Assembly (NCBI GenBank): GCA_023134705.1
Contig: JAGLUN010000011.1
Span: forward strand, 1 to 56,430
DNA length: 56,430 nucleotides
Reading direction: 5' to 3'
From: Candidatus Omnitrophota bacterium
Lineage (GTDB): Bacteria; Omnitrophota; Gorgyraeia; Duberdicusellales; 4484-171
Made by a program: the position numbers and the translations under genes. Of the stretch, positions 36,543 through 56,430 are shown piece after piece; the stretch's first letter is position 1, and every line of letters begins with the position of its first letter. The notes under the pieces were generated by a model that did not search any database, had not been told where the DNA came from, and saw only the letters and a list, made by a program, of their open reading frames with translations.

Positions 36543-36626
36543 ATCCAAAAAGTTGAGCGGGTTGCCTGGGCCCGAAATCCGTACAGCGTATAGCGTGCTG
36601 CGTGCAGTGTGCAACGTGTTACCAAC

Positions 36627-38660: not shown

Positions 38661-39098
38661 TTATTTTCCTTTATTTTCCAACTTATCTATAAACCCATCG
38701 GCTTGTTTTATATACCCGTTATAATCTTGAGCCGCCAAAAAAATGGCGTTGTAGACTTTTTCATCATCTATATCCATATATTCATGGACTAAGATATTTC
38801 TCATCCCTGCCGAACCTTTAAGTTTTTCCGCCAATTCCCTTGATATCAAACCTACATCCACGGCTCTTATAAATGAGACACTATAATCCTCTGGCGGCCT
38901 ATTTCCTGTCTCCATCACAACATGATTATTTATGTCTATAGCTCATTCTCCGATTAATTGAATAAGCCGCTCTGTAGCTGACTTTAAATAAAAGTCGGTT
39001 TTATATTCTTCCAGACTCTTTTGGGAAATAGGTTTTAACTTCTCTAAATACATATTCAAACGTGATAACTTTCTTCTAATCAATTCAATATCAATCAT
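38661..39098 (-). pseudogene. hepT: HepT-like (DUF86) toxin interrupted by an in-frame TGA
   Basis: ATG 39098 opens MIDIELIRRKLSRLNMYLEKLKPISQKSLEEYKTDFYLKSATERLIQLIGE. TGA follows at 38943-38945, then AIDINNHVVMETG...GMRNILVHEYMDID (the Rx4HxY motif) in the same frame. I checked this codon by codon. Confidence 0.7.
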
Positions 39099-39101
39099 AT
39101 T

Positions 39102-39539
39102 TCATCTCATCCTTTTTATTGCTGATTTAATATACTGTTTCTCCAATATCCTGAATTTTCCTGTATCTTGATATCTTGCCAATGCACCTAACCTAAAGGA
39201 ATTAAACAGGCCTCGGTTCTTTTCATACAAAGGTATACCATTTATGGCTACATGATAGGTAATCATTGCTTCAGCGCCATTTAAAAATACAGGGTCAAAT
39301 TTATCGCCAAAAATTGAAACAAAATCTCTCAATATGTCAAAATATTTTTCTTTAATTATATTAGAGTCCCCCAACAACCCTATATCTATATCACTTTTAG
39401 CTGTAGCGGCATTTTTAGCATACGAACCATGTAAAACTACTAGAAATAAATTATACTTCCGGCATATTCTATAAAGATCTTCTTTAACCCGCAGTAAAAT
39501 TTTGCTATTACAGGATTTATTGTAATCAAAAACATCCAT
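39102..39539 (-). CDS. mntA: MntA-type nucleotidyltransferase antitoxin
   Basis: VVLHGSYAKNAATAKSDIDIGLL is the GSx10DxD minimal nucleotidyltransferase motif. Its stop lies 3 nt before the HepT-like ATG. Confidence 0.75.
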   Translation of the reverse strand: MDVFDYNKSCNSKILLRVKEDLYRICRKYNLFLVVLHGSYAKNAATAKSDIDIGLLGDSNIIKEKYFDILRDFVSIFGDKFDPVFLNGAEAMITYHVAINGIPLYEKNRGLFNSFRLGALARYQDTGKFRILEKQYIKSAIKRMR

Positions 39540-43377: not shown

Positions 43378-44060
43378 TGAATTATTGAAGTGGATATAAA
43401 GACTCTTAAGAATTTGAAACTATCTTTAAAAATTGAAAAGTGAGATCTGCCAAATCTTCTCTCTTCCCACACGGTAGGAATTTCTGCGATCTTATATCCA
43501 TAAAAATACGCTTTCAAAACTACCTCCATAGAAATTTCAAAACCCTTGCTTTTTGTCTTTATATTTTCGAAAATAGTTTTTCTATAAGCTTTAAAAGGAT
43601 TGGTTGAATCTAAAGTAGGTATTTTTGTTATTGCATGAATTAAGTAGTTAAAATATCTCGAAAGGATAGCTTTTAAAAAAAAACTGTTCTTTCTTTTTCC
43701 CCTTCTCATATATCGTGAAGCGCAAATAATATCATAACCTTCGGATATCCCCTTACACATCCTGGGTATAATATCAATTTCATCAGATCCATCGCTCATC
43801 ACAGGAACGATAATATCACCTTTTGCCATATTTATACCGATCTCCAAGGATTCAGCAAACCCCTTTCTGTATTTGTTGACGATGATTTTAAATTCAGGGA
43901 AAGGTAGCGATAGTTTCTCCATGATTTCAAAACTACCGTCAGAGGAGTTATCGTCAATTACGATTACTTCATAATCCTCCTTGAACTTCCTCTGCAAATT
44001 AAACAAGATTTGCTCTATACTTTCTTTCTCATTATGCACAGGGATTATAATGCTTATCAT
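43374..44060 (-). CDS. GT2 polyprenyl-phosphate sugar synthase-like glycosyltransferase, paralog 2
   Basis: 228 aa, differing from 22719-23405 at only a handful of residues. Confidence 0.8.
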   Translation of the reverse strand: MISIIIPVHNEKESIEQILFNLQRKFKEDYEVIVIDDNSSDGSFEIMEKLSLPFPEFKIIVNKYRKGFAESLEIGINMAKGDIIVPVMSDGSDEIDIIPRMCKGISEGYDIICASRYMRRGKRKNSFFLKAILSRYFNYLIHAITKIPTLDSTNPFKAYRKTIFENIKTKSKGFEISMEVVLKAYFYGYKIAEIPTVWEERRFGRSHFSIFKDSFKFLRVFISTSIIQ

Positions 44061-44135
44061 TGGTTATATTTACTTTATGCTTTCTCTCCATAAGGACACC
44101 CTTGGTAAGACCACAGCCACAGGGAATAATCAAGT

Positions 44136-44427
44136 TTAAAACTAAACCTGTCTTTTTAAGATTTAAAAAGTTGGATTTCTTATCAATTAGGACTATACCT
44201 TTATCCTGGATAATTATATTACAGATTATTTTTAAAAGAGTGGTTTTCCCTGCCCCATTTTTTCCAAAAATTCCTAAAATTTCGCCCTTTCTCACGGAAA
44301 TATTTATATCTTTTAAGACAGTTTGCTTAAATTCATCCTTTATTTTGCCGGGAAGGCAATAACTTAGCTTTTTATAAAAAGGAATGGGTTTTAAAAAATA
44401 TTTAGTGAGATTATTTATTACTAACAT
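44136..44427 (-). pseudogene. Truncated ABC ATPase (N-terminal ~97 codons only)
   Basis: Near-identical to 25236-25527 (MLVINNLTKYF...GKNGAGKTTLLK...KKTGLVLN). The rest of the 607-aa gene is deleted. The track ORF 44032-44427 reads on through junk into the GT2 start. Confidence 0.8.
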
Positions 44428-44566
44428 AGTTTACAAAATAAGGTTCACATAGAATTTTGTTTAGCTTCTAAAAGAAGCGCTATGGTTGCCTACGGGAAAA
44501 ACACGCATTCAACAACTAGGCTTCCGTGAAAACTAAATATGCAATCAGCAGATGGGGATAATGCAT

Positions 44567-45268
44567 TCAATGATTCAATTGTTTTCTTAGGGCAAACATA
44601 GTCCACCTAAAATATCGTAATCCATGGTTAAAAATGTGAAACTTTGATTTCCCTGCCTTTCTGTCTCTCCAGACGGTCGGAATTTCGGCTATTTTATATC
44701 CAGCAAAATAAGCCTTTATTGTTATCTCTATGGACATTTCAAATCCCTTACTTTCTATATTGATATTCTTCAAGACTATCCTCCGATACATTTTAAATGA
44801 ATTCGTCAAATCAGTACAGGGAATTCCGCTAATTAAATGCATAATCCGGCTCAGGAGCATCGAAAATGACTTCTTTAAAAATCTCCCACCTACACGCCTT
44901 CCTCCCTTAATATTCCGTGAACCGCAAACGATATCATAACCTTCAAGAATCTTGGCATACATCTGATTAATCGATTCCGGTTGGTCGCAAAAGTCACCCA
45001 TAACCGGAACAACCACGCTATCGGCATCTACTTCTTCAAGCCCAGTCTTAAACGCACCAACTATCCCTGCTTCAAACATATTAGGAATTACCCGGATATT
45101 TTTATTGCAAATTGCCATTCGTTTAACTATCTCTCGAGTATTATCTATAGAAAAATCATCAATAACAATAATCTTATACTCTCCGGATAACTTACTTTCT
45201 ATCGCGGCTAAAGTCTTCTCAATAAGCTCTTCTTCATTATAAACAGGAATAATTATGTTTATCTTCAT
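44567..45268 (-). CDS. GT2 polyprenyl-phosphate sugar synthase-like glycosyltransferase, paralog 3 (diverged)
   Basis: MKINIIIPVYNEE...IIVIDDFSIDNT...MGDFCDQ. Confidence 0.8.
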   Translation of the reverse strand: MKINIIIPVYNEEELIEKTLAAIESKLSGEYKIIVIDDFSIDNTREIVKRMAICNKNIRVIPNMFEAGIVGAFKTGLEEVDADSVVVPVMGDFCDQPESINQMYAKILEGYDIVCGSRNIKGGRRVGGRFLKKSFSMLLSRIMHLISGIPCTDLTNSFKMYRRIVLKNINIESKGFEMSIEITIKAYFAGYKIAEIPTVWRDRKAGKSKFHIFNHGLRYFRWTMFALRKQLNH

Positions 45269-45531: not shown

Positions 45532-47178
45532 ATGTACCAAAAAAATGCAAGCAATTTTTGCCCTAAAGGGCGCCACAGGCGGGTTAAACCGAGATTCTGC
45601 AATAATATTTTAAGAATAATAGGTTTCTTAAAGAAACCTATTACAAAATCCCGGTTTAACAATCTATTAACTTCAATTCCTTATGAATTATGGCTTATCA
45701 TCGTAGTTGCCTTCTCTCTCAGAGTGTATCACTTAGGTTATCATGACCTTTGGTATGATGAAGTTATTACCCTTATCAAAATTTCTAAACCTGACATTCT
45801 CCAACTGTGGAATCCACCTCTCTACTATATTATTTTAGCTGGCTGGGTTAAAATATTTGGCTTCTCTGAAGTCAGCCTGCGGTTTCCTTCTTTATTATTC
45901 AGCTTAGCCTGCGTTCCGGCAATATATTTATTAGGTAAAGAATTATTTAACAAATCTGCGGGGATATTTGCCTCACTTATTACTGCTCTCTCACCATTTC
46001 AACTCTGGTATGCTCAAGAAGCTAGGAGCTATAGCCTTTTAGCATTTTTGGGGCTTCTTTCATCCTATTCTCAATTTCTTTTTATCAATCGAAAACAGAA
46101 TAAATTCTTATACTGGTGCATAGCCTTTGCTATATTAGGCGTTTATACCCATCCTTATTATATCTTTTTTGCAATTAGTCAATTAATATGCTGTGTTATT
46201 TGTATGAGAAAGAGATGGTCGGTTAAAATGCTAATTGCTTCCTTATTAGTTTCTCTTTCTTTTATTCCTATTATGCGAAAGTCTTGGATTAGATTATCCG
46301 CTGTAATGGAAAACTACTGGATTTCTACCCCGAGCTGGAAATCACTTTTAATAAGTATAGAAAATTTTAATTTGGGTTATAACAGTCATTTATTAACTTA
46401 TTTTATCTTTGATATATTAAGCCTGATTCTGGTTATTGCAGTTGTCTGGTCAGTGAAGAAGAAGGCGGTATCAAGAAAGGGGATTATATTCTGTTTTAGC
46501 CTATTTATCTTACCCCTGATATTTACATTTACATTTTCCAGGTTAATCGTCCCTATTTATTTTGATCGTGGTTTGATTATTTCTACTCCTTTTTACTACT
46601 TGATATTAGGACTGGGCATAAGCGCTTTTAGAAAAAAAATATTGAGGTTTTCTGTCATAATACTTATCCTCACATTCCTCACTGTGGGTATTTACGGTTT
46701 TCTCAAAGGATGGATGCCCACGAAACAGATTCATCACGTTGGGGTTCATCCTAAAAAGCCGATTGAACCGGTAGTAGAATTTATCAAAAAAAATTCGGCC
46801 CCTGAAGACATCATTGCTTTTACTAATGATTCCGTCAAACTCCCTTTTATCTGGTATAGTGAAGGAAGAAACTATGTCTTTTTCAGCGGACATAAAAAGG
46901 GCGTAAAGCCTTCTTTTGGAAAGTTTCGTTTTATCTTCGGGCCAAAGAGTGTAACTCCCAGCTACAGACAGCCCAGAAAAGAGGATGAGTTTAACATTCC
47001 CCTTGGTAAGGTCAACGAACTCGAGTTTAAGAAGCTTTTTGTTTTGGCCTGCGACTGGCCGAGAAGCGGAAATTTAGATAAGAATTCGTCAACTGTAAAA
47101 GAAAAATTGGACGAGATTTTTAATCTGGAAATGAAAAGAGAATTTGACGGCTTATGGGTATATAAGTATGGGAAATAG
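45532..47178 (+). CDS. GT-C fold glycosyltransferase (ArnT/PMT-like), paralog 3
   Basis: YDEVITL, FGFSEVSLRFPSLLFS and SPFQLWYAQEARSYSL. The N-terminus may start later than 45532. Confidence 0.75.
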   Translation: MYQKNASNFCPKGRHRRVKPRFCNNILRIIGFLKKPITKSRFNNLLTSIPYELWLIIVVAFSLRVYHLGYHDLWYDEVITLIKISKPDILQLWNPPLYYIILAGWVKIFGFSEVSLRFPSLLFSLACVPAIYLLGKELFNKSAGIFASLITALSPFQLWYAQEARSYSLLAFLGLLSSYSQFLFINRKQNKFLYWCIAFAILGVYTHPYYIFFAISQLICCVICMRKRWSVKMLIASLLVSLSFIPIMRKSWIRLSAVMENYWISTPSWKSLLISIENFNLGYNSHLLTYFIFDILSLILVIAVVWSVKKKAVSRKGIIFCFSLFILPLIFTFTFSRLIVPIYFDRGLIISTPFYYLILGLGISAFRKKILRFSVIILILTFLTVGIYGFLKGWMPTKQIHHVGVHPKKPIEPVVEFIKKNSAPEDIIAFTNDSVKLPFIWYSEGRNYVFFSGHKKGVKPSFGKFRFIFGPKSVTPSYRQPRKEDEFNIPLGKVNELEFKKLFVLACDWPRSGNLDKNSSTVKEKLDEIFNLEMKREFDGLWVYKYGK

Positions 47179-48352
47179 AAATTTAACAAAAGAGGCGCAA
47201 TTAGTTTTAGACATTCTCAGGGAAAGAAACGGAGATAAAAAACCTCCTTCTATAGATACCTTCCCTTTAGAAGACATAAACTGGCCTCTCCTGATAAAAA
47301 TGCTCAGATATCATAAACTAATTCCTTTTTCTTATCTTTTTTTCAAACATTCTTCGTTTACCTTAAGTAAAGAAACTAAGGATATTTTTGAGAAAAAGTA
47401 CAATTTTGTTCTATCTCGAAACATCCGGTTTCAGGAAGAATTTCTCAGGCTATACCGTATATTCACAAAAGAAGGTATAAGTATCGTGCCCATTAAAGGT
47501 TTGGCCCTCCTGGCAGACCTATACAACCAATATCCTGTCAGGCCAATGACAGATATGGACATCCTGGCCAAAGAAGAAGAATTAGAAAAAGCTGAGGGTA
47601 TTTTAGAAAATTCCGGATACAAGAAACACCTTGGGAAAGGGTCTTACTCATATTGGAGAGAGCAAAACTGTAATATTCCCTTTAAGAAGGAAAAAGAAGA
47701 TTGGCTGCTGGAATTACATTTTGCTCTTGATCTCAAAAGGCATTCTTGGTCTATCCTGCCGGATTTATGGAAAAGGATACGGCCATTTGATATCAATGGA
47801 ACAAAAATTAAACTATTATCTCCCGAAGATACCTTGTTTAGCCTGGCGCTTCATCAACGAAGATTCGGAGCACCTCTGTGTTTGAAAAATACACTGGATA
47901 TTGCTTTACTCCTGCACAAATACAAAGATAAGTTTGACTGGCGTTACGTTTTGGAAGAAGCAAAAAAGGGGGAAATGCGTTTAACTATCTTTTTCGTCCT
48001 GCTCCAGGCAGAATTTTTCCAAAAGACGCAAATATCTCCGCTTGTTTGGAAAGAATTGAGAGTTCCGGACTGGAAAAGGAAACTTATAAAAAGACTTATT
48101 GAAAAAGACACATTTTCATCAAAGCCTTTTTCTCGACTCAAACACATTTACCTGAAAACGCATTTTCTCCTCTACGATAGCCTCTGGGAACCAATTAACT
48201 ATATTCTTCATATCACCCGGGAAGAATTTGCAAAGTTTTATAATTTAACTCTATATGCACCTAAAACAGAAACCCTTTACAAAATGCGCTTCCTTTATCT
48301 ACCCTGGAGACTAATTCTGGATAATTTAAAGAAACTTCCTTTTAACGATTGA
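47144..48352 (+). CDS. NTP_transf_5-like nucleotidyltransferase-family protein, paralog 3
   Basis: VPIKGLALLADLYNQYPVRPMTDMDILAKEEELEKAEGILENSGY and ELHFALD. Confidence 0.7.
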   Translation: MTAYGYISMGNRNLTKEAQLVLDILRERNGDKKPPSIDTFPLEDINWPLLIKMLRYHKLIPFSYLFFKHSSFTLSKETKDIFEKKYNFVLSRNIRFQEEFLRLYRIFTKEGISIVPIKGLALLADLYNQYPVRPMTDMDILAKEEELEKAEGILENSGYKKHLGKGSYSYWREQNCNIPFKKEKEDWLLELHFALDLKRHSWSILPDLWKRIRPFDINGTKIKLLSPEDTLFSLALHQRRFGAPLCLKNTLDIALLLHKYKDKFDWRYVLEEAKKGEMRLTIFFVLLQAEFFQKTQISPLVWKELRVPDWKRKLIKRLIEKDTFSSKPFSRLKHIYLKTHFLLYDSLWEPINYILHITREEFAKFYNLTLYAPKTETLYKMRFLYLPWRLILDNLKKLPFND

Positions 48353-48361: not shown

Positions 48362-49897
48362 ATGGCAGAAACAGACAAATTTTTCTCATCCTCAAAGTTG
48401 CTTAAAGACGGGTTCCGAGGATCAATCTATCACTATTTCACAGCCGCGATTGCTGCTCTTCTTAATTTTCTTATTGTAATTTATATACTGCAAAGATTGA
48501 ATTTAGAAGAGTTTGGTATCTACAATTTCTTACTTGCTGCCGTGTTATTCATCCGCACAGTTACTTCTCTTGGAACGGACTCAGTGGTTCAAAGATATCT
48601 CCCTGAATATGAAGAAAAAGGAAACAATTATTTCAAAAAGCGCATCCTGAGCGGGAGTATGCTAATATGTTTCTTTGCTGCTGTCGTCCTCTTAGGTATC
48701 TTGTTTATTGCCAGAACCAGGATAATAGATTTTTTTCACCTTCCTGAATACTCAAAGAACCTTTTTTGTATATCGATGGCTATAGCCTTGCTTGCTCTGG
48801 AATCTCACCTTCTGGGGAATATAGCCCTGGTTGCTTTGTTAAAAAACCGATATTGGAGCTTTTGCAGAATTACTTATAGTCTTATAAAACTTATTTTGTT
48901 TTATTTTGCTTTTCGACTGAATTACGGGTTAACGGGAATCCTGTGGGGCTGGCTAATCTCCGAATTTTTACTTCTCATATTTTTTCTCATTAAGGGATAC
49001 CAGGATGTGTTTTCTCTGCCAGTAAGAAAAGAAAATATTCAAAAGCTGCCGGTAAGAAGGTTTATTAATTTCGCGAAATTCCTGTATTTCCACAAACTCA
49101 CTCAATTTTTTAAAAGGAAGGGATTTGACATATTTTTACTTTCTTACTTCTTGGACACTAAAGCAGTAGCTATCTATTCTTTCTGCTTTGGAATCCCTCT
49201 GCTGTTGATGCAATTATCGCCGGCTAATAAACTGCATCCTATATTAAAAACCCTCTCAGTGAGGAACTATACGAGGCAAAAGAATTACGAAAACTTTTCC
49301 TATTTATTTGCCTTTATTAACCGGCTAACCTTTTTTATTATGATACCCCTTTTCATTTTTGTAATGATTCTAGCAGACAAAATAACTTTGTTTTTACTGA
49401 ATCCGGACTACATCAAGACCGTATACCTATTTAGATTATCCCTGGCCTTTATAGCTATCCACCAGTTTGGATTTGTATATACACCGATTTTATTTACCCT
49501 GGAAAAGACAAAGATAATTTTCATTACCGGCTTAATCTCGTTTTACAATTTGGTCATGGATATCCTCTTGATACCCATTTATGGCGTCTTAGGTGCTATT
49601 CTTGCTACCGGCAGCACCGGAATTATAGTAATTCTCTACTATCGTTATGCTACGGGTAAAATTATTCGCCTCTCCTATCCCTGGAAGTCTTTTGCTGTCT
49701 TTACTCTCAACACTCTATTTGCAGCGGGTCTTCTGTTTATCCTGCGCCCGTTTATGGATGATGTCTTTTCACTAATTTTTGTTTTTGCTTTAACAGTAAC
49801 CGCTTATCTAATCTTTTCATTTCTTAACAAAGGGTTCGAACAAAAAGACCGGGATATTATTAACGCGGTGATAGGGAGAAAAATATGGGTGTTTTAA
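48362..49897 (+). CDS. MOP/Wzx-type oligosaccharide flippase-family membrane protein
   Basis: 511 aa with about 12 or more hydrophobic helices. The N-terminal region is typical of polysaccharide-biosynthesis (Wzx-like) proteins. Confidence 0.65.
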   Translation: MAETDKFFSSSKLLKDGFRGSIYHYFTAAIAALLNFLIVIYILQRLNLEEFGIYNFLLAAVLFIRTVTSLGTDSVVQRYLPEYEEKGNNYFKKRILSGSMLICFFAAVVLLGILFIARTRIIDFFHLPEYSKNLFCISMAIALLALESHLLGNIALVALLKNRYWSFCRITYSLIKLILFYFAFRLNYGLTGILWGWLISEFLLLIFFLIKGYQDVFSLPVRKENIQKLPVRRFINFAKFLYFHKLTQFFKRKGFDIFLLSYFLDTKAVAIYSFCFGIPLLLMQLSPANKLHPILKTLSVRNYTRQKNYENFSYLFAFINRLTFFIMIPLFIFVMILADKITLFLLNPDYIKTVYLFRLSLAFIAIHQFGFVYTPILFTLEKTKIIFITGLISFYNLVMDILLIPIYGVLGAILATGSTGIIVILYYRYATGKIIRLSYPWKSFAVFTLNTLFAAGLLFILRPFMDDVFSLIFVFALTVTAYLIFSFLNKGFEQKDRDIINAVIGRKIWVF

Positions 49898-49907
49898 TTC
49901 AAAGAAA

Positions 49908-50690
49908 TCACTCCATACGGAATAAAGATTCATCCGGCAGGCCAAGAGAAAAATGCGCAATGAGTAATCTGACCTTTAACTCACCGTTGACATACATTTC
50001 TTTGATAGAAGGGAAAAAAACATCGCCAAACTTACGGTAGCGCGTCGCATATTTTACCATGTGTCTATCTTTCCGAATAACTTCTACTTTCAGTAAATAA
50101 AAAGTCTCCTTATCAAAACTTATCCGGACTTCTTTTTCGGGTTGTTTCCAGGCTAACAAATAACACGGCCGGCCTAATACTTTTTCTTCTCCGAGCAACT
50201 CAGCTTTATCCGCTTTTTTGTCCAGATTCACAAAGGGTCCTGGTATTTCGTGTAGATAAGCCTGCAAGCGGCTGTTAATCAAAAAGTTGCGTTCTGTTTC
50301 ATCTTTAACCTCATTTACCATCTTGCCGTTTTCGTAAGTTATTGTTTTACCTGAATCAGCAATTAACAATAAATTTGTTACTTTTTCGGTTCCCCTATAT
50401 GTTTCAATTTCAATCCTGCATTTATTATACGAAACCACCCAGGCAGATACCCTTCTATGCACACCAGTTTCATGGTCACATTGATAATAGATAATGGTGT
50501 ATCCTGGTATGTTATTCCAATCCCATCGTTCTCTCCCCCCAACTGCTTCTACCGCTCTTGTAGTAATCTCCTTAGGAGTCATAGATGCTATATCATTATG
50601 AGAAACCACCTGCCTTAAGGGAAAGCCGCAACCAGTAAACCACAAACACAATATTCCGGTACATATCAATTTAAGAATTGCTTTTCTCAT
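49908..50690 (-). CDS. LolA-like (outer-membrane lipoprotein-sorting fold) lipoprotein, paralog 1
   Basis: The signal peptide has a lipobox-like FTGC. GGRERW, LLGEEKVLGRPCYLL and a C-terminal LPDESLF are shared with the two neighbours. Confidence 0.5.
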   Translation of the reverse strand: MRKAILKLICTGILCLWFTGCGFPLRQVVSHNDIASMTPKEITTRAVEAVGGRERWDWNNIPGYTIIYYQCDHETGVHRRVSAWVVSYNKCRIEIETYRGTEKVTNLLLIADSGKTITYENGKMVNEVKDETERNFLINSRLQAYLHEIPGPFVNLDKKADKAELLGEEKVLGRPCYLLAWKQPEKEVRISFDKETFYLLKVEVIRKDRHMVKYATRYRKFGDVFFPSIKEMYVNGELKVRLLIAHFSLGLPDESLFRME

Positions 50691-50713
50691 ATATTTCCAT
50701 CATCTTTTTTAAG

Positions 50714-51538
50714 TCAAAACTCAAATAGAGACTCATCAGGCAGAGCAAAACTGAGGGAACGAAACTCTAATTTACTTACCAATTCTCCATCGTAATATAA
50801 CAATTTTGAAACAGGTACTTCTATACCGTTAGCTTTGAGTGTTTTATCACCATGAAAAACTTCTATGAATTTATCGTTATATCCACGATCTACTTCTTTT
50901 TTAACACGACGGAAGGTTCCTGTATCAACAAATAATTTTGTTTTAGTTTTTTTAGACTTTCTATATTCCAGAACATAGCACTCTCTTCCTTTTACAGTTT
51001 GTTTTCCGATAAGATCCATCCAGTCTTTTATACTATTCCAATGCTTAATTTGGGTAGGTCCCCGAATCCTCTGAAACCTTCTAAGTGTTTCCTCCAAAAA
51101 GAGAAACATTTCTGAGGGTGTTCTCTCTACCTCTTTACCATCCTTCAGGTATTTGATGGTACCTGCATTATATATCAATTGGAAAACTTCTTCTTTCCCT
51201 CCTCTATTTACTTCTACATCAAATCGGAACTTGTCAGGCAATCTAATATAGTGCTTACACATCTGTGTTCCATCAAGAGAGTAATCTTCTATTAAAATGA
51301 TAGAACTCCATCCCCTGATGGCCTGCCATTTTTCCAGACCTCCATAGGAATCTATCATTTTAGAAATAATAACACTTGCATCTAAACCCTCTGTCCGTTT
51401 CCCAGTTTTTACTGCGACCTTTCCTCCAGTCTTCTTGCTTGAATTAAAAATAGTGGCATCTGCACACTCCAGAGATAAAATTACTATAAGAGCAAATACC
51501 ATAACCTCAATTAAAAAAATCGCCTTTCTCTTACACAT
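50714..51538 (-). CDS. LolA-like secreted protein, paralog 2
   Basis: The start is set at ATG 51538 (MCKRKAIFLIEVMVFALIV...). The track TTG start at 51559 reads through a G10 tract. It also has GGLEKWQAI, IGKQTVKGRECYVLEY and ...ALPDESLFEF. Confidence 0.5.
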   Translation of the reverse strand: MCKRKAIFLIEVMVFALIVILSLECADATIFNSSKKTGGKVAVKTGKRTEGLDASVIISKMIDSYGGLEKWQAIRGWSSIILIEDYSLDGTQMCKHYIRLPDKFRFDVEVNRGGKEEVFQLIYNAGTIKYLKDGKEVERTPSEMFLFLEETLRRFQRIRGPTQIKHWNSIKDWMDLIGKQTVKGRECYVLEYRKSKKTKTKLFVDTGTFRRVKKEVDRGYNDKFIEVFHGDKTLKANGIEVPVSKLLYYDGELVSKLEFRSLSFALPDESLFEF

Positions 51539-51547
51539 TCTTTCTCT

Positions 51548-51557
51548 CCCCCCCCCC
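51548..51557. repeat. Homopolymeric C10 (G10 on the coding strand) tract just upstream of the paralog 2 start
   Basis: Counted directly: three C at 51548-51550 plus seven C at 51551-51557. Confidence 0.9.
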
Positions 51558-51612
51558 AACTGCTTCTACCATTCTTGTAGTAATCTCCTTTATTTCTACC
51601 ATCTTTTTTAAA

Positions 51613-52530
51613 TCAAAACTCAAATAGAGACTCATCAGGCAGAGCAAAACTGAGGGAGCGAAACTCTAATTTAGCCACAAATTCTTTATCATTATAAACC
51701 CATCTTATAACAGGCACTTCCATACCATTCTCCTTAAGTGTCTGCGCACTAAGAAGAACCTCTATGAATTTACCGTTATATCCCTTATCCACTTCTAGTT
51801 TAACACCACGAAAGGTTTTTGTGTCAACAAATATTCTTTGTTTAGTATCTTCTGATTTTCCATATTCCAGAACATAACACTCACTTCCTTCTATAGTCTG
51901 TCTTCCGATAAGATTTATCTCGTTTTTTATACGATTAAAATATTTAAATTGCGCAGGTGCCTGAAGCCTCTGATATCTTTTAAGTGTTTTCTCCAGAAAG
52001 AAAAACATTTCTGAAGATGTTCGCTCTGCCTCTTTACCATCTTTCAGGTATTTGATGGTACCTGCATTATATATTAATTGAAAGACTTCTTTTTTCCCTC
52101 CTCTGTTTACCTCCGCATCAAACCGGAACTTGTCAGGCAATCTAATATAGTGCTTACACATCAATATTTCATCACGATAGTGCTTTTTTATTAAAATAAT
52201 AGAGCTCCATCCTTCTATAGCCTGCCATTTCTCCAAACCCCCACAGACATCTATCATTTTAGAAATAATAACACTTGGCTCTAAACCCTCTGACTCTTTT
52301 CCGGATAAAGAAGAAGATTCTTCTTCTATCCTTTTTATTTCATCAAAATAGTAAGTTAATAGGAGACCTTCAAAATCCACTTTTATATACTGATCTGTTT
52401 TTTCTACAATTTTTCCTTCGACCTTTCTGCCTGATTTTAAAATAATGGTTTCAGCATAAGCCGAAGATAAATTCATTATAAAAGCAAACAGTATAACTTG
52501 AGTTAAAAAAATAACTTTTCTTTTACGCAT
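51613..52530 (-). CDS. LolA-like secreted protein, paralog 3, with an extra small N-terminal domain
   Basis: Signal peptide ...LSSAYA-ET, then IILKSGRKVEGKIVEKTDQYIKVDF. The remainder is highly similar to paralog 2. Confidence 0.5.
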   Translation of the reverse strand: MRKRKVIFLTQVILFAFIMNLSSAYAETIILKSGRKVEGKIVEKTDQYIKVDFEGLLLTYYFDEIKRIEEESSSLSGKESEGLEPSVIISKMIDVCGGLEKWQAIEGWSSIILIKKHYRDEILMCKHYIRLPDKFRFDAEVNRGGKKEVFQLIYNAGTIKYLKDGKEAERTSSEMFFFLEKTLKRYQRLQAPAQFKYFNRIKNEINLIGRQTIEGSECYVLEYGKSEDTKQRIFVDTKTFRGVKLEVDKGYNGKFIEVLLSAQTLKENGMEVPVIRWVYNDKEFVAKLEFRSLSFALPDESLFEF

Positions 52531-52557
52531 CTTTCGTCTCCTCCTGAATAATAAAAT

Positions 52558-53670
52558 TTAACTACAAACCTTAAAAGCATCCGGGGGTAACTGTTCAAAC
52601 AATTTCCAACATTGCGGGTCAGGCGCGTCTAACTTTCCAAAATAACCATAACTTACACAGCGCGCACCTCCTCGGCACAATTCAAAATATTCACAGTTCC
52701 TGCAAACAGAAGATAAATTCTCGGGGTTTCTTATCCGGCTAAGGAGCTCTGAGGTAAACCATATTTCAAGCAGACTCTTTTTCAACACATTTCCCAGAAC
52801 AATAGGGAGTCGCCTGCAAGGCAATACGTCGCCGTTTGGCAATACGGTTAATATGCGGTTACTCAATACCCCGCATAAAGGGATTGTACGGTTATCGTAT
52901 TGTGATACTAATTCTTCTTCCTGAAAAAAGACGCCGTCTTCGCAACAAAGAGAATTAAAAGTGGGTTGTTTAGTATTAGAGCCGCAAGCGTAATTTTCCT
53001 TTGCCAAAGCATGGCGCAGCCTGTAAAAATCCCGCTGTTCCAAAGGGCTTATCATATCATCTATTAATCTTTTTTGGTTTTTGCCTATAGGAACCAGCCG
53101 CCGAATACCTATTCTCCTTACTTCTAACTTTATAAAAAAATCTATAAGTTGAGGAATTTCTTTGAGGTTATATTTTGCTAAAGTAACGGAAACCAATACT
53201 GGTATATCGTTTTTATTTAAAATTTCTATCGTATTCACTATCTGCTCAAAAGTGCCTTTGCCCCGAATCCTATCGTTTACGCTCTCCATTCCTTCTACGC
53301 TAAGCTGTACAGCATCTACTCCTAATGTTTTCAGCATTTCTACTTTTTCATCATTCAGCAGTGAACCGTTAGTTAAAATTTTAAGGCGGTACCGATCATT
53401 ATATTTATAAATTCTTTTCAGAAAAACTATAAAATCATCTCTTAAGAAAACCTCTCCCCCGGTAAGATTTAATCTTGCAATCTGAGGAGGAATTTTAAAG
53501 GTATCCAGAAATTGGATGAATTGGAGGAAAATCCGGTAAAGCTGGTCAATCGATAGTTCGTTGTAACCTCGGTCTCTATAACAATGTGAACAGTTCCAGT
53601 TACACCGTTCGGTAATATGCCACTGCAGGGAAAAACCGTTTTTTAAACTTAGTTCGCGTTTACTTTTCAT
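52558..53670 (-). CDS. Radical SAM/SPASM maturase (locus III, distal)
   Basis: HITERCNWNCSHCY, LTGGEVF, and SPASM CGVLSNRILTVLPNGDVLPC...CRNCEYFELCRGGARC. Confidence 0.85.
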   Translation of the reverse strand: MKSKRELSLKNGFSLQWHITERCNWNCSHCYRDRGYNELSIDQLYRIFLQFIQFLDTFKIPPQIARLNLTGGEVFLRDDFIVFLKRIYKYNDRYRLKILTNGSLLNDEKVEMLKTLGVDAVQLSVEGMESVNDRIRGKGTFEQIVNTIEILNKNDIPVLVSVTLAKYNLKEIPQLIDFFIKLEVRRIGIRRLVPIGKNQKRLIDDMISPLEQRDFYRLRHALAKENYACGSNTKQPTFNSLCCEDGVFFQEEELVSQYDNRTIPLCGVLSNRILTVLPNGDVLPCRRLPIVLGNVLKKSLLEIWFTSELLSRIRNPENLSSVCRNCEYFELCRGGARCVSYGYFGKLDAPDPQCWKLFEQLPPDAFKVCS

Positions 53671-53938
53671 GCAACTTAATGAATCCTTTCTGGGAAAATT
53701 CTTTCATAAGGCTAACCACATCTTCACGGATTATTTTATATTCAATGTCAAAATGTTTAACAAGGTATTTAACAATAGACTCAACCGTTTCCCCGTGCTG
53801 TATTAGGTGCCATATTTGGCTAGCCGTGGAGTTCAGGTTAAAAAACTCCGCTGTTTTTTTATCTAAAATTGTTACTTCGCCTTCAATCTTTCTCCAGGCA
53901 ACTTTTTCTTTATCGATTTCGTATACTAATTCCGCCAT
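53660..53938 (-). CDS. PqqD-family protein (locus III)
   Basis: VAWRKIEGEVTILDKKT..FFNLNSTASQIWHLIQHGETVESIVKYLVKHFD. Confidence 0.8.
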   Translation of the reverse strand: MAELVYEIDKEKVAWRKIEGEVTILDKKTAEFFNLNSTASQIWHLIQHGETVESIVKYLVKHFDIEYKIIREDVVSLMKEFSQKGFIKLHEK

Positions 53939-53948
53939 ATCCGCCTCC

Positions 53949-54884
53949 TTAAAATACTTCTGCGTTTTTCAATATTGCGTAGAGCCGTGCTGGATTATCT
54001 CGCACATCTCTTCCGCATTCCATTCTAAAAAATGAGCAGGTATCAATTAACAGATTGCTCCAGGTATTATAAAAATTTTTCATATAATCGAGAGCTGATT
54101 CTAAATAACTCGGATTTAAGAATTGCCTTGAGCGTTTTAAAACACTCTTTATTCCCTCTCTGGACAAAGGACAAATCAGGGTAGTATCAGAAGGAGCTAT
54201 GGAAATGAGAATTATTGACTTTAAGAGAGCTCCGGCATTCATACAATTATCAACCCCAAACATCTGAAAAAGATTCATATCGTTGTTTCGGCCCACCTGA
54301 TTAAAAATGGAAAAGGCCCAGATTCCGCTGTTTACCGATTTTAAAAATACCTGGTCATCAGCAATCCATTTAAAACCTTGCTGCAATAAATTTTTTAAAA
54401 CAGTGCTCTTGCCCTGGCTAGAAGGAGCAAGAAACATATAGGCTTCATTTTTGTCATTGGCTAAGCATGAACTGTGAAAAGAATAAATATCACTGTATAG
54501 CAAAAGTAAATAAATCGCTCCTTTTATAAATCTAATTGGGAGAAGAACCGGTCTCGCCCAATGATAAGGAGAAATAAAAAACTGTATTTGCTTTTTATCG
54601 ATATCAATTATCGCTTTTGAAGGATTATTAATGCCCCAACAGGCAATAATTCGATTCTTATCTGGATATTTATAATGCCATGGCCCCCAAATTGAGATAT
54701 TTCGGTCCATCTTCGGCAGAGAGAAAGAATGCTGTTCCAATTGGGAAATATCAAAAAAATAAAGAGCGATATCGGCTTTTTCCTTTTTAGGGGTTATTCG
54801 CCATTTAAAAAATCCTAAACCAGAGACGATTTTTTGCAAGAAGGAATTACTCTTTTCTATTTGAATATAGAAGGAAAAATTCAC
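53949..54884 (-). CDS. HPr-kinase-related P-loop kinase-like protein (locus III)
   Basis: FHSSCL...AYMFLAPSSQGKSTVLKNLL P-loop and IADDQVFLK. Confidence 0.65.
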   Translation of the reverse strand: MNFSFYIQIEKSNSFLQKIVSGLGFFKWRITPKKEKADIALYFFDISQLEQHSFSLPKMDRNISIWGPWHYKYPDKNRIIACWGINNPSKAIIDIDKKQIQFFISPYHWARPVLLPIRFIKGAIYLLLLYSDIYSFHSSCLANDKNEAYMFLAPSSQGKSTVLKNLLQQGFKWIADDQVFLKSVNSGIWAFSIFNQVGRNNDMNLFQMFGVDNCMNAGALLKSIILISIAPSDTTLICPLSREGIKSVLKRSRQFLNPSYLESALDYMKNFYNTWSNLLIDTCSFFRMECGRDVRDNPARLYAILKNAEVF

Positions 54885-54987
54885 TTTTTAGTACCCGGCT
54901 ATTTCGTATAGCAAGAATTTTTTTTGTTTAGTTTAATTAATAAAATTGATTGTCTGATAAAAATATGACTCGTCCTTATTTCTGCGA

Positions 54988-55158
54988 TTAACTACACCCA
55001 CAAGTGCAACATGTACACCCGGAATCAAATTCCTTTTTTTCCGGTTCAGGAATGATTATCTTTTCCATAGTTGGTTTCACATATTTTTTCTCCTGGTTAA
55101 CATGTTCCTCCTGAATACCAGCATCTCTTCTTTCTTTATCTCTCTTATGCATATGCAT
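54988..55158 (-). CDS. Cys-rich precursor peptide (56 aa from ATG 55158)
   Basis: SD AGGAGGGG lies 5 nt before the ATG. Translation: MHMHKRDKERRDAGIQEEHVNQEKKYVKPTMEKIIIPEPEKKEFDSGCTCCTCGCS. It lies between an rSAM/SPASM gene and the kinase-like gene. Confidence 0.75.
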   Translation of the reverse strand: MHMHKRDKERRDAGIQEEHVNQEKKYVKPTMEKIIIPEPEKKEFDSGCTCCTCGCS

Positions 55159-55183
55159 ATTTACCCCTCCTACCAAGCCTTTT

Positions 55184-56230
55184 TCAGTTTCTTACCGGGC
55201 AGCCTTCATCTACTCCGTTAAGGCTGCCAGTATCCATATAAGCCTTAGCCCGACACCCGCCACGACAAAGCTCAAAAAATCTGCATTCTCTGCACCCAGG
55301 GTTATCAACAGATATTTGGCTGAACATCTCGTTAATACGCTGACGCACCACTCCCACAGATTGCCTTTTAACGTTACCCACTGGAGGCAAAGGATGAGTT
55401 AAGTAAGGAAAGAACGGGCACGGGTAAACATCACCATTAGGAAATAGACAAAATTTCCCTTTTTCAACGCACTTTTTTAAACGCTGAAAGGCTTCATGGA
55501 ATATTTCATAATAATTTTCCCACAACCAGGAATTTTTGCAAGCATAAAGGTAGTTCACAACAAGAGGAGAAAATCCAATCTCAGGAAACCTTTTTTCCTT
55601 TTGATTTTTTAAAATATTCACGAGTTTCTCCATCCCTTCTTCGAATTGTTTAAAAGAAAGGCGTAAATCATGCCTTCCATTCACGGGAAGGGTAATTGAA
55701 AAAACAACTTTTCTTATGCCTAAATTTTGAGCCATAATATGCATATCCCCTATTTGAAAAATATTGGCTGGAGTTAGCGTAATAACCATGGTGCAGGGAA
55801 TAGCATATTCCCGGATAAGTTTAACTTTCCATAATAAATTTTCAAAGTATCCTTTGCCTCTCATGTTATCCTGTACTTCACCGATACCTTCACAGGAAAC
55901 TTGAATAGCACTAACCCCGGCCTTTTTCAATAAGCTCAATTTTTCTCTGTCTAAAAGCAGTGCGTTAGTTAAAACATTTACTTTCTTGTTTAAAGAAGCA
56001 GCGTGCCTGGTAATTTCTATAACCTTCTCCAGCTCCAGTAAAGGTTCTCCACCTAAAAGCCTGATGATATCAATGTCGGTTAATTCATCAATTACACGAC
56101 AGAACTCTTCTCCAGATAACTTTTCCTCCGAAGAATACCCTGCGTTAGTCCTGAAACAGTGTGTGCATGATAAATTGCACTCTTGAGTTATATAAAAACT
56201 AACTAATTTTGTGTTAATTAACCGCCTCAT
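55184..56230 (-). CDS. Radical SAM/SPASM maturase (locus III, proximal)
   Basis: YITQECNLSCTHCF, LLGGEPL, and SPASM ...LFPNGDVYPC...GCRECRFFELCRGGCRAKAY. Confidence 0.85.
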   Translation of the reverse strand: MRRLINTKLVSFYITQECNLSCTHCFRTNAGYSSEEKLSGEEFCRVIDELTDIDIIRLLGGEPLLELEKVIEITRHAASLNKKVNVLTNALLLDREKLSLLKKAGVSAIQVSCEGIGEVQDNMRGKGYFENLLWKVKLIREYAIPCTMVITLTPANIFQIGDMHIMAQNLGIRKVVFSITLPVNGRHDLRLSFKQFEEGMEKLVNILKNQKEKRFPEIGFSPLVVNYLYACKNSWLWENYYEIFHEAFQRLKKCVEKGKFCLFPNGDVYPCPFFPYLTHPLPPVGNVKRQSVGVVRQRINEMFSQISVDNPGCRECRFFELCRGGCRAKAYMDTGSLNGVDEGCPVRN

Positions 56231-56430
56231 GATTACAAAAGCCTTTGTTTAAATTATAACATACTGTGCTTTATTATAAAATGTTCAGGTTCAATGGTGG
56301 AATTAAGGAAGATACGTTTATAAAAAAGATACCACCGAATGTCGAATTTGGAAAGGATTTTCTTTAAGGCTGTGACTATTACATAAATTCTGCGGGGGTA
56401 TTTTTGTTAACCGGAAAAATGCATTTGAAA

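Follow-up and report, generated by a model that had tools for sequence, protein, structure and literature searches.

Several described systems resemble parts of the locus reported here. The SynChlorMet (SCM) cassette, ScmC/ScmD/ScmE/ScmF, is a system defined in silico within NCBIfam/TIGRFAMs, and we know of no biochemical characterisation of it; the radical SAM (rSAM) enzyme of the ACGX-repeat system, TIGR04340, is likewise an in-silico family. In SCIFF, ranthipeptide and sactipeptide systems, SPASM enzymes such as CteB, PapB and SkfB act on Cys-rich C-terminal cores. Lasso peptide systems have a leader motif, YxxPxL, to which B1/PqqD proteins bind (PMC6784204). Their HprK homologues place a phosphate on the C-terminal Ser of the precursor, with the rest of the sequence mattering little, and an NTP transferase then attaches a hexose to that phosphate (PMC8498205; PMC6993621).

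Organisation of the cluster

The window, the whole 56,430-nucleotide stretch of DNA that was analysed, contains at 52558-56230 a set of five minus-strand genes, here called Locus III. It comprises rSAM-A, a radical SAM/SPASM enzyme of 348 aa (55184..56230); a precursor peptide of 56 aa plus stop (54988..55158); an HPr-kinase-like P-loop protein of 311 aa (53949..54884); a discrete PqqD-family RRE of 92 aa (53660..53938), which shares 11 nt with the start of rSAM-B; and rSAM-B, a second radical SAM/SPASM enzyme of 370 aa (52558..53670). These are the five genes of the first-pass annotation, and each gene call was verified at its coordinates and strand. That annotation had also described the peptide as flanked by two SPASM enzymes. 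Both enzymes are indeed present, but rSAM-B does not adjoin the peptide; it lies two genes downstream, behind the kinase-like gene and PqqD. A candidate promoter-like site, TTTATA-16-TATAAT with TG (56253..56280, minus strand), is found 23 nt upstream of the first gene; it scores 10/12, the top score of the region, where the count of such sites is not above chance.

The cluster is conserved and real, and its hosts are uncultured planctomycete-like bacteria. Both the conserved unit and the functional unit are larger than the region first annotated, adding three secreted LolA-fold proteins and a convergent glycosylation set of PMT_2, NTP_transf_5 and flippase genes. On the minus strand, the first LolA-superfamily protein (305 aa, secreted, with a signal peptide; 51613..52530) begins 27 nt past rSAM-B, the second (281 aa; 50714..51559) shares 61% identity with the first, and the third (260 aa; 49908..50690) is a lipoprotein with lipobox FTGC. 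The model of this lipoprotein (pLDDT 76) has LolA3, LolB, LolA and RseB as its best Foldseek matches (E 5e-8 to 1e-6), and a distant LolA-fold homologue lies behind the rSAM gene of a distant locus, L020.

Convergent with the peptide operon, on the plus strand, are a Polysacc_synt (MOP/Wzx-like) flippase (48362..49897), whose synteny is conserved, an NTP_transf_5 (PF14907) nucleotidyltransferase (47144..48352; E 1.6e-43) and a PMT_2 (GT-C, ArnT/PMT-like) glycosyltransferase (45532..47178). The last is 62% identical to a gene of related locus L024 that stands directly upstream of a peptide operon, on the same strand. A GT2 polyprenyl-phosphate-sugar synthase-like glycosyltransferase (44567..45268, minus strand) is conserved beside the cluster in L001, L005 and L011. 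NTP_transf_5 is present in all orthologous contigs long enough to show the gene, and recurs with HprK-like, PqqD and rSAM genes in distant loci L020, L021, L024 and L026; together with these genes and a small peptide it occurs three times in the window. The conserved module lacks a leader peptidase and an ABC exporter, the window's S24-like peptidases and ABC transporters being confined to loci other than Locus III.

Comparison with described systems

The architecture of Locus III is that of SynChlorMet: an HprK-related protein, a PqqD-like protein and two different SPASM rSAMs beside a small peptide. The ScmC model is matched by the kinase-like proteins of loci I and II and by 29 of 50 distant relatives, and Pfam ScmC (PF27840) is recorded for those of related loci. 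The kinase-like protein of Locus III, in contrast, gives no match to ScmC at E<=10 (NCBIfam) or E<=1 (Pfam). Scores for the other components are also low: rSAM-B reaches 134 bits against ScmE (cutoff 400), rSAM-A 80 and 61 against ScmE and ScmF (400), and PqqD 20 against ScmD (cutoff 100). Gene order differs as well, and LolA-fold and glycosylation genes are added. Since none of the components reaches its NCBIfam cutoff, identity with the SynChlorMet cassette was rejected.

With the phosphorylated and phosphoglycosylated lasso peptides (paeninodin, pseudomycoidin), Locus III shares a discrete PqqD/B1-type RRE, an HprK-homologous kinase with the DD pair, an NTP_transf-type enzyme, a leader of the [YFW]xxPx[LMI] type (here Y26xxPxM31) and a precursor ending in Ser. 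Some relatives in the wider class also carry a B2-like Transglut_core3 protease, whereas no such transglutaminase-like leader peptidase is present in the Locus III module. The locus departs from lasso systems in having two SPASM rSAMs in place of the cyclase, and its 10-residue core lacks the N-terminal Gly/Ala...Asp/Glu macrolactam pattern. No lasso cyclase (Asn-synthetase-like C protein) was found in the window, where ORFs of at least 500 aa are all assigned to other families, and no Asn-synthetase-like macrolactam synthetase occurs in the orthologous contigs. The cluster combines a lasso-peptide toolkit with radical SAM enzymes.

The SCIFF, ranthipeptide and sactipeptide systems resemble Locus III in the action of SPASM enzymes on Cys-rich C-terminal cores and, for SCIFF, in a highly conserved core and a module without exporter or peptidase. 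They differ in that the RRE is here separate rather than fused, that two maturases are accompanied by a kinase, and that the core has only 10 residues; rSAM-A aligns to CteB residues 96-435 and so lacks the N-terminal domain of CteB. SCIFF/ranthipeptide identity was rejected on scores of 102 against PapB (cutoff 340), 69 against ScfB (425) and 73 against SkfB (300), with no precursor-model match. TIGR04340 is the best curated match of rSAM-B, over its full length, yet the 177 bits fall short of the cutoff of 400, the core GCTCCTCGCS has no ACGX tandem repeats and the peptides match no NCBIfam peptide model at E<=10; the ACGX system was rejected likewise, its resemblance extending to the small-residue/Cys motifs of the class cores.

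The precursor peptide

The peptide has the sequence MHMHKRDKERRDAGIQEEHVNQEKKYVKPTMEKIIIPEPEKKEFDSGCTCCTCGCS and ends in DSGCTCCTCGCS. As first described, it has a long charged leader (22 of 46 residues) and a Cys-rich end, with five Cys among the last ten residues. Nor was a recognised precursor family found for it, in line with the same description: a scan of Pfam and NCBIfam was empty even at E<=10. The core decapeptide GCTCCTCGCS (54991..55020, minus strand) is unique in the window; its back-translated pattern occurs once there and is absent from 100 shuffles.

Short ORFs are common, and this one has no match among database families, so it might be a chance reading frame beside rSAMs that act on another substrate. 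We consider the chance of this negligible. An AGGAGG ribosome-binding site stands 7 nt ahead of the ATG, and independent pipelines call the gene. Each of the six lineages recovered has the peptide in the same place, with rSAM-A on one side and the kinase-like gene on the other. Five of these have the identical core, while their enzymes are merely 60-82% identical; between lineages the core codons show up to 7 synonymous differences in 10 and no non-synonymous difference, and the N-terminus of the leader drifts. In the sixth, diverged lineage (L016), whose kinase-like protein is 40% identical, the core is instead WCACAGCGFGCACSAT, with the pattern CxCxxCG common to both. The core is under strong purifying selection, and synonymous-only change across lineages effectively refutes a chance frame. 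Loss of the peptide beside orthologous clusters, which the first-pass annotation had named as grounds for abandoning its proposal, was therefore not what we found. The arrangement fits the generic class of RiPP clusters with a radical SAM/SPASM maturase and a PqqD-type RRE: a small precursor gene, conserved next to the enzymes, whose leader varies and whose core is constrained.

The leader contains Y26-V-K-P-T-M31 (55066..55083, minus strand), an instance of [YFW]xxPx[LMI]. All 12 aligned peptides, this one and 11 others beside related enzymes, have the invariant Pro and an aromatic residue at -3, which again argues against a chance frame. Given its resemblance to the lasso motif YxxPxL, we presume this to be the RRE recognition site. 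Ser is the invariant last residue of the peptide, and the candidate peptides of the window's two paralogous loci end in Ser too.

Radical SAM enzymes and the PqqD protein

Both enzymes match Pfam Radical_SAM (E 8e-22 and 3e-26) and SPASM (E 5e-5 and 7e-11), and both carry the CX3CX2C motif with a complete set of SPASM cysteines. In rSAM-A these are C18/C22/C25 and C254, C261, C271, C313, C316, C322, C326 and C344; in rSAM-B they are C23/C27/C30 and C243, C266, C285, C323, C326, C332, C338 and C354, with a SPASM spacing of CX2CX5CX5C. All cluster-binding cysteines are conserved, in 4 relatives of rSAM-A and 10 of rSAM-B, and from these motifs both enzymes look functional.

The nearest solved relatives of both are the thioether-forming SkfB and CteB, followed by PqqE; significant relatives include PqqE and the mycofactocin maturase. 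The best NCBIfam match of rSAM-A is the ranthipeptide maturase PapB, and that of rSAM-B the ACGX-system rSAM. rSAM-A is lineage-specific, with ~25% identity to the rSAMs of the wider class, and rSAM-B has 1223 relatives at E<1e-30. No curated family is reached above threshold by the peptide or the enzymes, so that their chemistry is not transferable by homology.

rSAM-A has no fused RRE, and both enzymes begin directly at the rSAM motif. With neither enzyme carrying a recognition domain of its own, recognition must be supplied by the discrete PqqD. This protein belongs to the PqqD family of recognition elements (PF05402; E 1.5e-13, 51 bits, cutoff 23), and its best NCBIfam matches are lasso PqqD chaperones (E 7e-12), below cutoff at 45 against 80.

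The HPr-kinase-like protein

The label "kinase-like" proved correct, though the relationship is visible only by sensitive methods. As a single sequence the protein does not reach the curated cutoffs of Pfam Hpr_kinase_C/ScmC or NCBIfam HprK_rel_A/HprK_rel_B (Hpr_kinase_C, E 0.04, 13.8 bits against 33.3; HprK_rel_A, E 0.03, 13.4 against 200). Profile-profile alignment with hhalign, in turn, gives full-length homology to HprK-related proteins (100% probability, E 2e-39, 282 columns), and HPr kinase/phosphatase is the top Foldseek match of a model of moderate quality (pLDDT 68).

The features of the HprK C-terminal-domain fold are retained: the conserved His (H137), the P-loop (Walker A, A152-PSSQGKS-T161) and the DD motif (D176-D177). 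Among the five lineages with the GCTCCTCGCS core, the HprK-like proteins all keep H137, A152xxxxGKS/T and D176-D177; in the sixth (P0007) D176 is Asn, leaving D177 as the invariant residue of the pair. The lasso kinase PsmK cannot do without the equivalent DD pair (PMC6993621). By analogy, the protein points to phosphorylation as a further modification, beyond the thioether or disulfide chemistry first envisaged. The C-terminal residue is T, G, A, W, A and H in L016, L020, L023, L024, L025 and L026, respectively; as it is not always Ser across the wider class, the kinase-like protein cannot have C-terminal Ser phosphorylation as its general role.

Proposed pathway and alternative readings

From the gene identities, the conservation of genes and their order, the purifying selection on the core, the intact catalytic motifs, the common leader motif and the recurrent co-occurrence of the gene set, we propose a route that is putative in each chemical step, in the order of the steps, and in export and biological role. 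To its central claim, a RiPP operon in which the core is modified by two rSAMs and phosphorylated by the kinase-like protein, with the sugar and envelope neighbours involved, we give about an even chance. The free-standing PqqD-type protein would recognise the 56-aa precursor through the leader motif K-Y-V-K-P-x-M and present it to the two different radical SAM/SPASM enzymes, both of which would modify the invariant C-terminal decapeptide. By analogy the cross-links are probably thioethers, most likely several Cys-sulfur-to-carbon links onto neighbouring Thr, Gly or Ser that would yield a very compact polycyclic peptide; against this, rings between adjacent residues would be unusually small compared with those of known sacti- and ranthipeptides. 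The HPr-kinase-like protein would then phosphorylate a peptide hydroxyl at the expense of ATP, possibly, as with the homologous lasso-cluster kinases, that of the invariant C-terminal Ser, the best candidate. NTP_transf_5, GT2, PMT_2 and the flippase may add a sugar to the phosphate or to a hydroxyl, but the glycosylation genes lie on the opposite strand and could be merely conserved neighbours. Handling of the product in the cell envelope may finally fall to the three co-transcribed, secreted LolA-fold proteins.

The same genes can be read in other ways. The product may, with a small but real chance, be a cofactor-like or metal-binding intracellular peptide rather than a secreted natural product, its CxC/CC/CxxC pattern binding a metal or Fe-S cluster or becoming a redox-active moiety, in a housekeeping role such as is suspected for SCIFF, or as with PQQ and mycofactocin, two further products of SPASM enzymes with PqqD-type partners. 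Antimicrobial RiPPs do not usually keep a 10-residue core constant across enzymes that have diverged to 60%; the CxCxxCG pattern also present in the diverged core of L016 is metallothionein-like; the significant relatives include PqqE and the mycofactocin maturase; and peptidase, exporter and immunity genes are all missing from the conserved module. The tight linkage to three secreted LolA-fold proteins, a flippase and periplasm-facing GT-C enzymes points instead to the envelope, the leader peptidases and varied cores of related clusters are typical of natural-product diversification, and the great rarity of the family is contrary to housekeeping. It is quite unlikely, in turn, that only rSAM-A, the peptide, PqqD and rSAM-B concern the peptide, with a non-catalytic or regulatory kinase-like protein and with LolA-like and glycosylation genes that form an unrelated envelope-biogenesis locus travelling along. 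The single-sequence similarity to kinase models is marginal, yet Walker A, the DD pair and the conserved His are kept. GT2, PMT_2 and flippase sets are common envelope genes, here on the other strand, but each of the window's three paralogous loci carries its own GT2/PMT_2/NTP_transf_5 set, and the LolA-like genes start 16-42 nt past rSAM-B in every lineage. Among six distant rSAM-B loci, L023 and L025 lack NTP_transf_5 while keeping a ScmC-like protein and PqqD, and L022 lacks all three; in L021, L024 and L026, on the other hand, NTP_transf_5 belongs to a same-strand operon.

A lanthionine-like route appears improbable. Here the kinase-like protein would phosphorylate Thr49, Thr52 or Ser56, elimination of the phosphate would give dehydro-amino acids to which neighbouring Cys add, and the rSAMs would carry out other tailoring. 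Phosphorylation followed by elimination is established chemistry in class III-V lanthipeptides, and in every class core Cys are interleaved with Ser/Thr and accompanied by a conserved kinase. The module yielded no lyase or cyclase domain, however, HprK-type kinases in RiPPs are known solely for stable C-terminal phosphorylation, the L016 core has one Ser and one Thr against five Cys, and the two SPASM enzymes would be left with no obvious role.

A wider class of related clusters

Locus III, the proposed RiPP operon, belongs as a rare, divergent branch to a large uncharacterised class, most of it from Omnitrophota and Planctomycetota. Membership of this class and the common lasso-like leader motif mean that the cluster is not an isolated oddity. 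The class gene set comprises an enzyme-B-like rSAM, a ScmC/HprK-like protein, PqqD and a Cys-rich peptide, often with NTP_transf_5 and glycosyltransferases. Leader peptidases (Transglut_core3, S24/S26) occur in related clusters whose cores are very different, the B2-like Transglut_core3 protease being found in L021, L024 and L026. Across the class, the cores are rich in motifs of small residues and Cys, such as ACS, ACA, GCG and SCG.

Gene organisation of Locus III

The five genes of Locus III lie on the minus strand at 52558-56230, closely packed as the first-pass annotation had described. They encode the radical SAM enzyme rSAM-A (55184-56230, 348 aa), a 56-aa peptide (54988-55158; MHMHKRDKERRDAGIQEEHVNQEKKYVKPTMEKIIIPEPEKKEFDSGCTCCTCGCS) with AGGAGG 7 nt ahead of its ATG, an HPr-kinase-like (HprK-like) protein (53949-54884, 311 aa), a PqqD protein identified through Pfam (53660-53938, 92 aa) and a second radical SAM enzyme, rSAM-B (52558-53670, 370 aa). 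Gaps of 25, 103 and 10 nt separate rSAM-A from the peptide gene, the peptide gene from the kinase-like gene and the latter from PqqD, while PqqD and rSAM-B overlap by 11 nt. No terminator-like site separates the genes, and neither a terminator nor a stable hairpin was found 3' of the peptide gene. The best promoter-like site is directly upstream of rSAM-A, such sites being no more frequent than expected by chance, and no Rfam elements were found in 49000-56430.

A rare lineage with an invariant peptide core

The same gene order (rSAM-A, small ORF, kinase-like protein, PqqD, rSAM-B) was found by contig comparison in six lineages. The peptide had been described as a charged leader followed by a Cys-rich end, and the counts bear this out: 22 of the 46 leader residues are charged and five of the last ten are Cys. 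This terminal decapeptide, the core GCTCCTCGCS, is unchanged in five of the lineages (window, KYVKPTMEKIIIPEPEKKEFDSGCTCCTCGCS; L001, KYVKPAMEKVIIPEPEKKDFDSGCTCCTCGCS; L005, KYVKPQMEKVVIPRPEEKDFHAGCTCCTCGCS; L008, KYVKPLMEKVVVPKPEEKDFHAGCTCCTCGCS; L011, KYVKPAMEKVVIPRPEEKDFHAGCTCCTCGCS), whose enzymes are just 60-82% identical to those of the window. Up to seven of the ten core codons differ between lineages and every change is synonymous, which rules out a chance reading frame, an explanation to which we give almost no credence. The leader gathers replacements between lineages, and its N-terminus cannot be aligned. A search with the back-translated core gave a single match in the window and none in 100 shuffles.

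In the diverged sixth lineage (L016), where the kinase-like protein is 40% identical to that of the window, the peptide ends ...KFVKPRIEELIISPSKERRARGAWCACAGCGFGCACSAT, with five Cys among small residues. The two cores have a CxCxxCG pattern in common, the L016 core being longer and ending in Thr. The leader-core junction also differs among the peptides (DS/G versus HA/G, the slash marking the junction). The first-pass annotation held that absence beside orthologous clusters would speak against the peptide; it is retained in all six lineages, so that on comparative grounds it is a genuine, constrained gene. It matches no Pfam or NCBIfam family, and the precursor family is absent from both annotation sets. 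With five Cys in ten residues, frozen across lineages, the core is among the densest in Cys seen.

The Locus III lineage is truly rare, as shown by the few loci that exhaustive searching and collection scans yielded. A word-index search with the kinase-like protein returned four relatives, and HMMER, run exhaustively over 1.84 billion representatives, recovered two orthologous clusters before falling to E ~1e-9, where the matches were generic HprK-like proteins. The peptide, used to query a word index, brought up nothing beyond its own cluster and a single orthologue. Scanning a genome collection gave one locus, in a MAG of an ‘uncultured Planctomycetales bacterium’, and scanning the JGI metagenome collection gave two that were already known. 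This rarity precluded a larger comparative set.

The radical SAM enzymes

Both large flanking enzymes carry the Pfam Radical_SAM and SPASM domains, in agreement with their first description as SPASM enzymes. Neither reaches the cutoff of any curated NCBIfam model. The closest model to rSAM-A is PapB, a ranthipeptide maturase (102 bits; cutoff, 340), with AhbD and NirJ close behind; for rSAM-B it is the ‘ACGX system’ radical SAM enzyme (177 bits; cutoff, 400), a system known here by its NCBIfam model name. The enzymes are similar to SCIFF, ranthipeptide and sactipeptide maturases, but score far below threshold. The closest solved structures for both are SkfB, CteB and PqqE. The alignment of rSAM-A covers CteB residues 96-435, indicating that rSAM-A is without the N-terminal recognition domain of CteB; since both enzymes start straight at CX3CX2C, leader recognition must come from the free PqqD.

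All the cysteines are conserved, both in rSAM-A (C18/22/25; SPASM C254, 261, 271, 313, 316, 322, 326 and 344) and in rSAM-B (C23/27/30; SPASM C243, 266, 285, 323, 326, 332, 338 and 354), the SPASM spacing of the latter, CX2CX5CX5C, being unusual. Only ~25% identical to any other radical SAM enzyme examined, rSAM-A is an addition particular to the Locus III lineage.

The kinase-like protein

As a single sequence, the kinase-like protein matches Hpr_kinase_C (E 0.04) and HprK_rel_A (E 0.03) in the P-loop region only, and it has no sequence match in the PDB. A profile made from it and its orthologues, however, aligned with one built from 50 distant relatives (282 columns, 100% probability, E 2e-39); 47 of these relatives match HprK_rel_A, 45 HPr(Ser) kinase and 29 ScmC, a component of the in-silico SynChlorMet cassette. 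With its AlphaFold model (pLDDT 68) as query, HPr kinase/phosphatase structures rank highest, followed by PEP carboxykinases. H137, the Walker A segment A152-PSSQGKS-T161, which agrees with the general form [AG]x4GK[ST], and D176-D177 are conserved in the five lineages with the GCTCCTCGCS core. In the sixth, Asn takes the place of D176 (protein P0007), leaving D177 as the sole invariant member of the pair. PsmK, a lasso-peptide kinase, cannot do without the corresponding DD pair (PMC6993621). In lasso systems, HprK homologues place a phosphate on the C-terminal Ser of linear precursors, largely irrespective of the remaining sequence, and an NTP transferase afterwards attaches hexose to that phosphate (PMC8498205; PMC6993621).

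A large class sharing rSAM-B, a kinase-like protein and PqqD

At E<1e-30, rSAM-B has 1223 relatives, and many of those with a name bear that of Omnitrophota. Six related loci (L020-L025; 44-48% identity) were inspected. An ScmC/HprK-like protein with PqqD was present in five, GT1/GT4 glycosyltransferases and a B12-rSAM in four each, NTP_transf_5 in three, YcaO in one, and PMT_2, a B2-like Transglut_core3 protease and an S24/S26 peptidase in two each. The PMT_2 and NTP_transf_5 proteins of L024, 62% and 58% identical to the window copies, are encoded directly upstream of the peptide operon on the same strand. A seventh locus (L026), reached through a distant kinase-like match, has, in this order, Transglut_core3, a peptide, HprK-like, rSAM, PqqD and NTP_transf_5 genes. 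The core common to the class consists of rSAM-B, the kinase-like protein and PqqD.

The class peptides are rich in Cys and small residues (...TTTACSYCAYGCYYG, ...SCSSCSTCSSCACGS, ...TCCAIVAAICIGCSSCGGSCYA, ...SSCGCSNCGCSACW and ...AACSSCGVA) and have in common a leader element, K-K-[YFW]-x-x-P-x-[LMIYF]; an alignment of 12 peptides shows an invariant Pro and, at -3 from it, an aromatic residue throughout. This element resembles YxxPxL, the lasso-peptide leader motif (PMC6784204), and the top curated matches of PqqD are lasso chaperones. The C-terminal residue varies in the wider class (S, T, G, A, W, A or H). As only six of the 12 candidate peptides have a C-terminal Ser, and a seventh a Thr, a kinase targeting C-terminal Ser was dropped as a universal rule; the cores are Ser-rich in any case. 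Searches of curated families and solved structures brought up no characterised member of this class of >1000 rSAM-B-like enzymes, and literature searches on HPr kinase combined with either radical SAM or PqqD, SynChlorMet, ScmC/ACGX and PF14907 found nothing relevant.

Two class loci have unusual contents. L023, from the same metagenome as L001, holds a hybrid cluster (2145-11578) of a peptide (…TCCAIVAAICIGCSSCGGSCYA), ScmC, a TPR protein, a B12-rSAM, GT1, an rSAM-B-like enzyme, PqqD, a ThiF-YcaO fusion, a further PqqD and an S24 peptidase, which suggests azole formation combined with the radical SAM chemistry of the class. SPASM enzymes include sulfatase maturases, and in L020 (975-5257) a related peptide/ScmC/PqqD/rSAM operon is immediately preceded by three sulfatase genes. 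The adjacency is probably coincidental, the phylum being sulfatase-rich, and a sulfatase-maturase role was dropped because the enzyme there still has ScmC and PqqD partners.

Linked secreted proteins and glycosylation genes

The gene calls at 52558-56230 stand, but the functional unit is larger than the first-pass annotation stated, with linked genes beyond it. Wherever a lineage offers sufficient sequence, a run of three genes for paralogous secreted proteins starts 16-42 nt after rSAM-B (in the window, 51613-52530, 50714-51559 and 49908-50690). A model of the third (pLDDT 76) matches LolA3, LolB, LolA and RseB (E 5e-8 to 1e-6), which places the three, on modelled fold, in the LolA superfamily. 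The first (51613-52530) has an additional small N-terminal beta-domain (residues 13-56), absent from its two paralogues, which resembles the N-terminal domain of Leptospira LA_0442/LA_0875 (NF047433, E 1e-7, below cutoff). Convergent with these genes lie a Polysacc_synt flippase (48362-49897), NTP_transf_5 (47144-48352) and PMT_2 (45532-47178), with a GT2 gene nearby (44567-45268). The orthologous modules contain neither a peptidase nor an ABC exporter.

Proposed maturation and alternatives

Locus III is a radical SAM RiPP cluster with a PqqD recognition element, and belongs to a large uncharacterised class. It has the architecture of the SynChlorMet cassette, known here by NCBIfam model names, but fails every curated cutoff; for recognition and tailoring its parts are those of phosphorylated lasso peptides, yet it has no cyclase, which rules out a lasso cluster. 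We propose that PqqD would bind the leader at Y26xxPxM31, bringing in both radical SAM enzymes, and that these would modify GCTCCTCGCS. Cys-S-to-carbon cross-links are our leading guess, at a little under an even chance, because the closest relatives form thioethers and the substrate is Cys-rich; thioether rings in this core would be unusually small. The kinase-like protein would phosphorylate a hydroxyl of the peptide, a step we judge slightly favoured. Phosphorylation of the C-terminal Ser in particular, as by the lasso kinases, fits the invariant Ser of the core and the Ser-ending peptides of the paralogous loci I and II, and is rated low because the last residue varies across the wider class; we hold it tentatively, and as lineage-specific at best. 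That the linked genes glycosylate the product and handle it in the envelope is a lead, though an unlikely one. A small residue followed by Gly at the junction would suit the S24-type peptidases of loci I and II; the Locus III module itself has none.

The fullest reading, a distinctly long shot, is a new kind of envelope-directed RiPP: a ~1-kDa poly-thioether peptide whose C-terminal Ser would be phosphorylated and then glycosylated, or linked by way of a polyprenyl-phosphate pathway (NTP_transf_5, GT2, the Wzx-like flippase and the GT-C PMT_2), with periplasmic transit by dedicated LolA-fold carriers. If true, the lasso-peptide toolkit for recognition and tailoring has been put to new use around radical SAM cyclisation, and a large RiPP class in Omnitrophota and Planctomycetota, so far unexplored, would be defined along the same lines. 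A cofactor or metal-binding peptide that stays inside the cell would agree with the frozen core and the absent exporter, but its partners are secreted and the class has diversified, and we think it improbable. It is less probable again that the cluster is smaller, with unrelated neighbours and a non-catalytic kinase-like protein. A lanthionine-like route through phosphorylation and elimination we regard as very unlikely; neither a lyase nor a cyclase was found.

Cys-rich radical SAM RiPP clusters as such are a familiar outcome of genome mining. Locus III is well founded and experimentally tractable, and its mix of lasso toolkit and radical SAM enzymes is intriguing: the class joins radical SAM chemistry with kinase, nucleotidyltransferase and RRE parts earlier tied to lasso peptides. 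One characterised member would give chemistry to the long-standing in-silico ‘ScmC-type’ cassettes, would test HprK-type peptide kinases beyond lasso systems and could possibly show new thioether topologies with very small rings. As the host organisms are uncultured, sequence is the sole handle on the system.

Other loci in the window

The window holds two more paralogous loci, I (~14.1-19.1 kb) and II (~28.7-36.9 kb), each with its own rSAM/SPASM enzymes, PqqD, kinase-like protein and GT2/PMT_2/NTP_transf_5 set, and both with S24-type peptidases. Locus I (14138-19078) encodes a U32 peptidase, a 288-aa protein, HprK-like and PqqD proteins, a peptide, an rSAM/SPASM enzyme and an S24-like 163-aa protein. 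Its peptide (15710-15886, minus strand; MHSNIKTKGEWKVKKARNKRKKWIDPKFKEEVVKERKGMVACYKTGGGCGWLHLHHFS) has a WxxPxF leader motif and a C-terminal Ser (...HLHHFS), and directly upstream of the locus, on the same strand, lie a methyltransferase gene and the GT2/PMT_2/NTP_transf_5 set (19094-23405). Locus II (28754-36932) has HprK-like (29097-30167) and PqqD (36627-36932) genes, three rSAM/SPASM genes (31284-32399, 32448-33560 and 33979-35127) and three related candidate peptides (28754-29044, 30598-30879 and 35311-35427). These start MGRKPKF(R/K)P(K/R)IT...NP(E/K)QAVL.C.C; two end in Ser (...LTAS and ...SQSSS), and the third, being short, may be a remnant.

Selfish or unrelated genes break up Locus II (28315-28716, 33579-33953, 36276-36614 and 38661-39539): an RVT_1 reverse-transcriptase fragment, a 23S rRNA intervening-sequence protein, a small protein called GIY-YIG-like from a sequence motif alone, and a Polbeta-type nucleotidyltransferase that, with its upstream partner, has the appearance of a toxin-antitoxin pair.

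The remaining window (3167-12986 and 23704-28236) has the look of one RiPP ‘island’, with a B12-binding rSAM (3167-5539), a 1143-aa ABC ATPase-containing protein and ABC-2 permease (5523-9736), an amine-oxidase-like flavoprotein (9793-11358), another rSAM (11676-12986) and two more ABC transporters. Their exporters might also serve Locus III, but in other lineages none lies within 10 kb of the orthologous cluster. Finally, 22274-25534 and 42929-44434 are related by a recent segmental duplication, with 300-nt DNA repeats at 99% and 89% identity. The GT2 proteins of 22719-23405 and 43374-44060 are 97% identical, and a truncated ORF (44032-44427) repeats, at 99% identity, the N-terminal 98 residues of the ABC transporter at 23704-25527.
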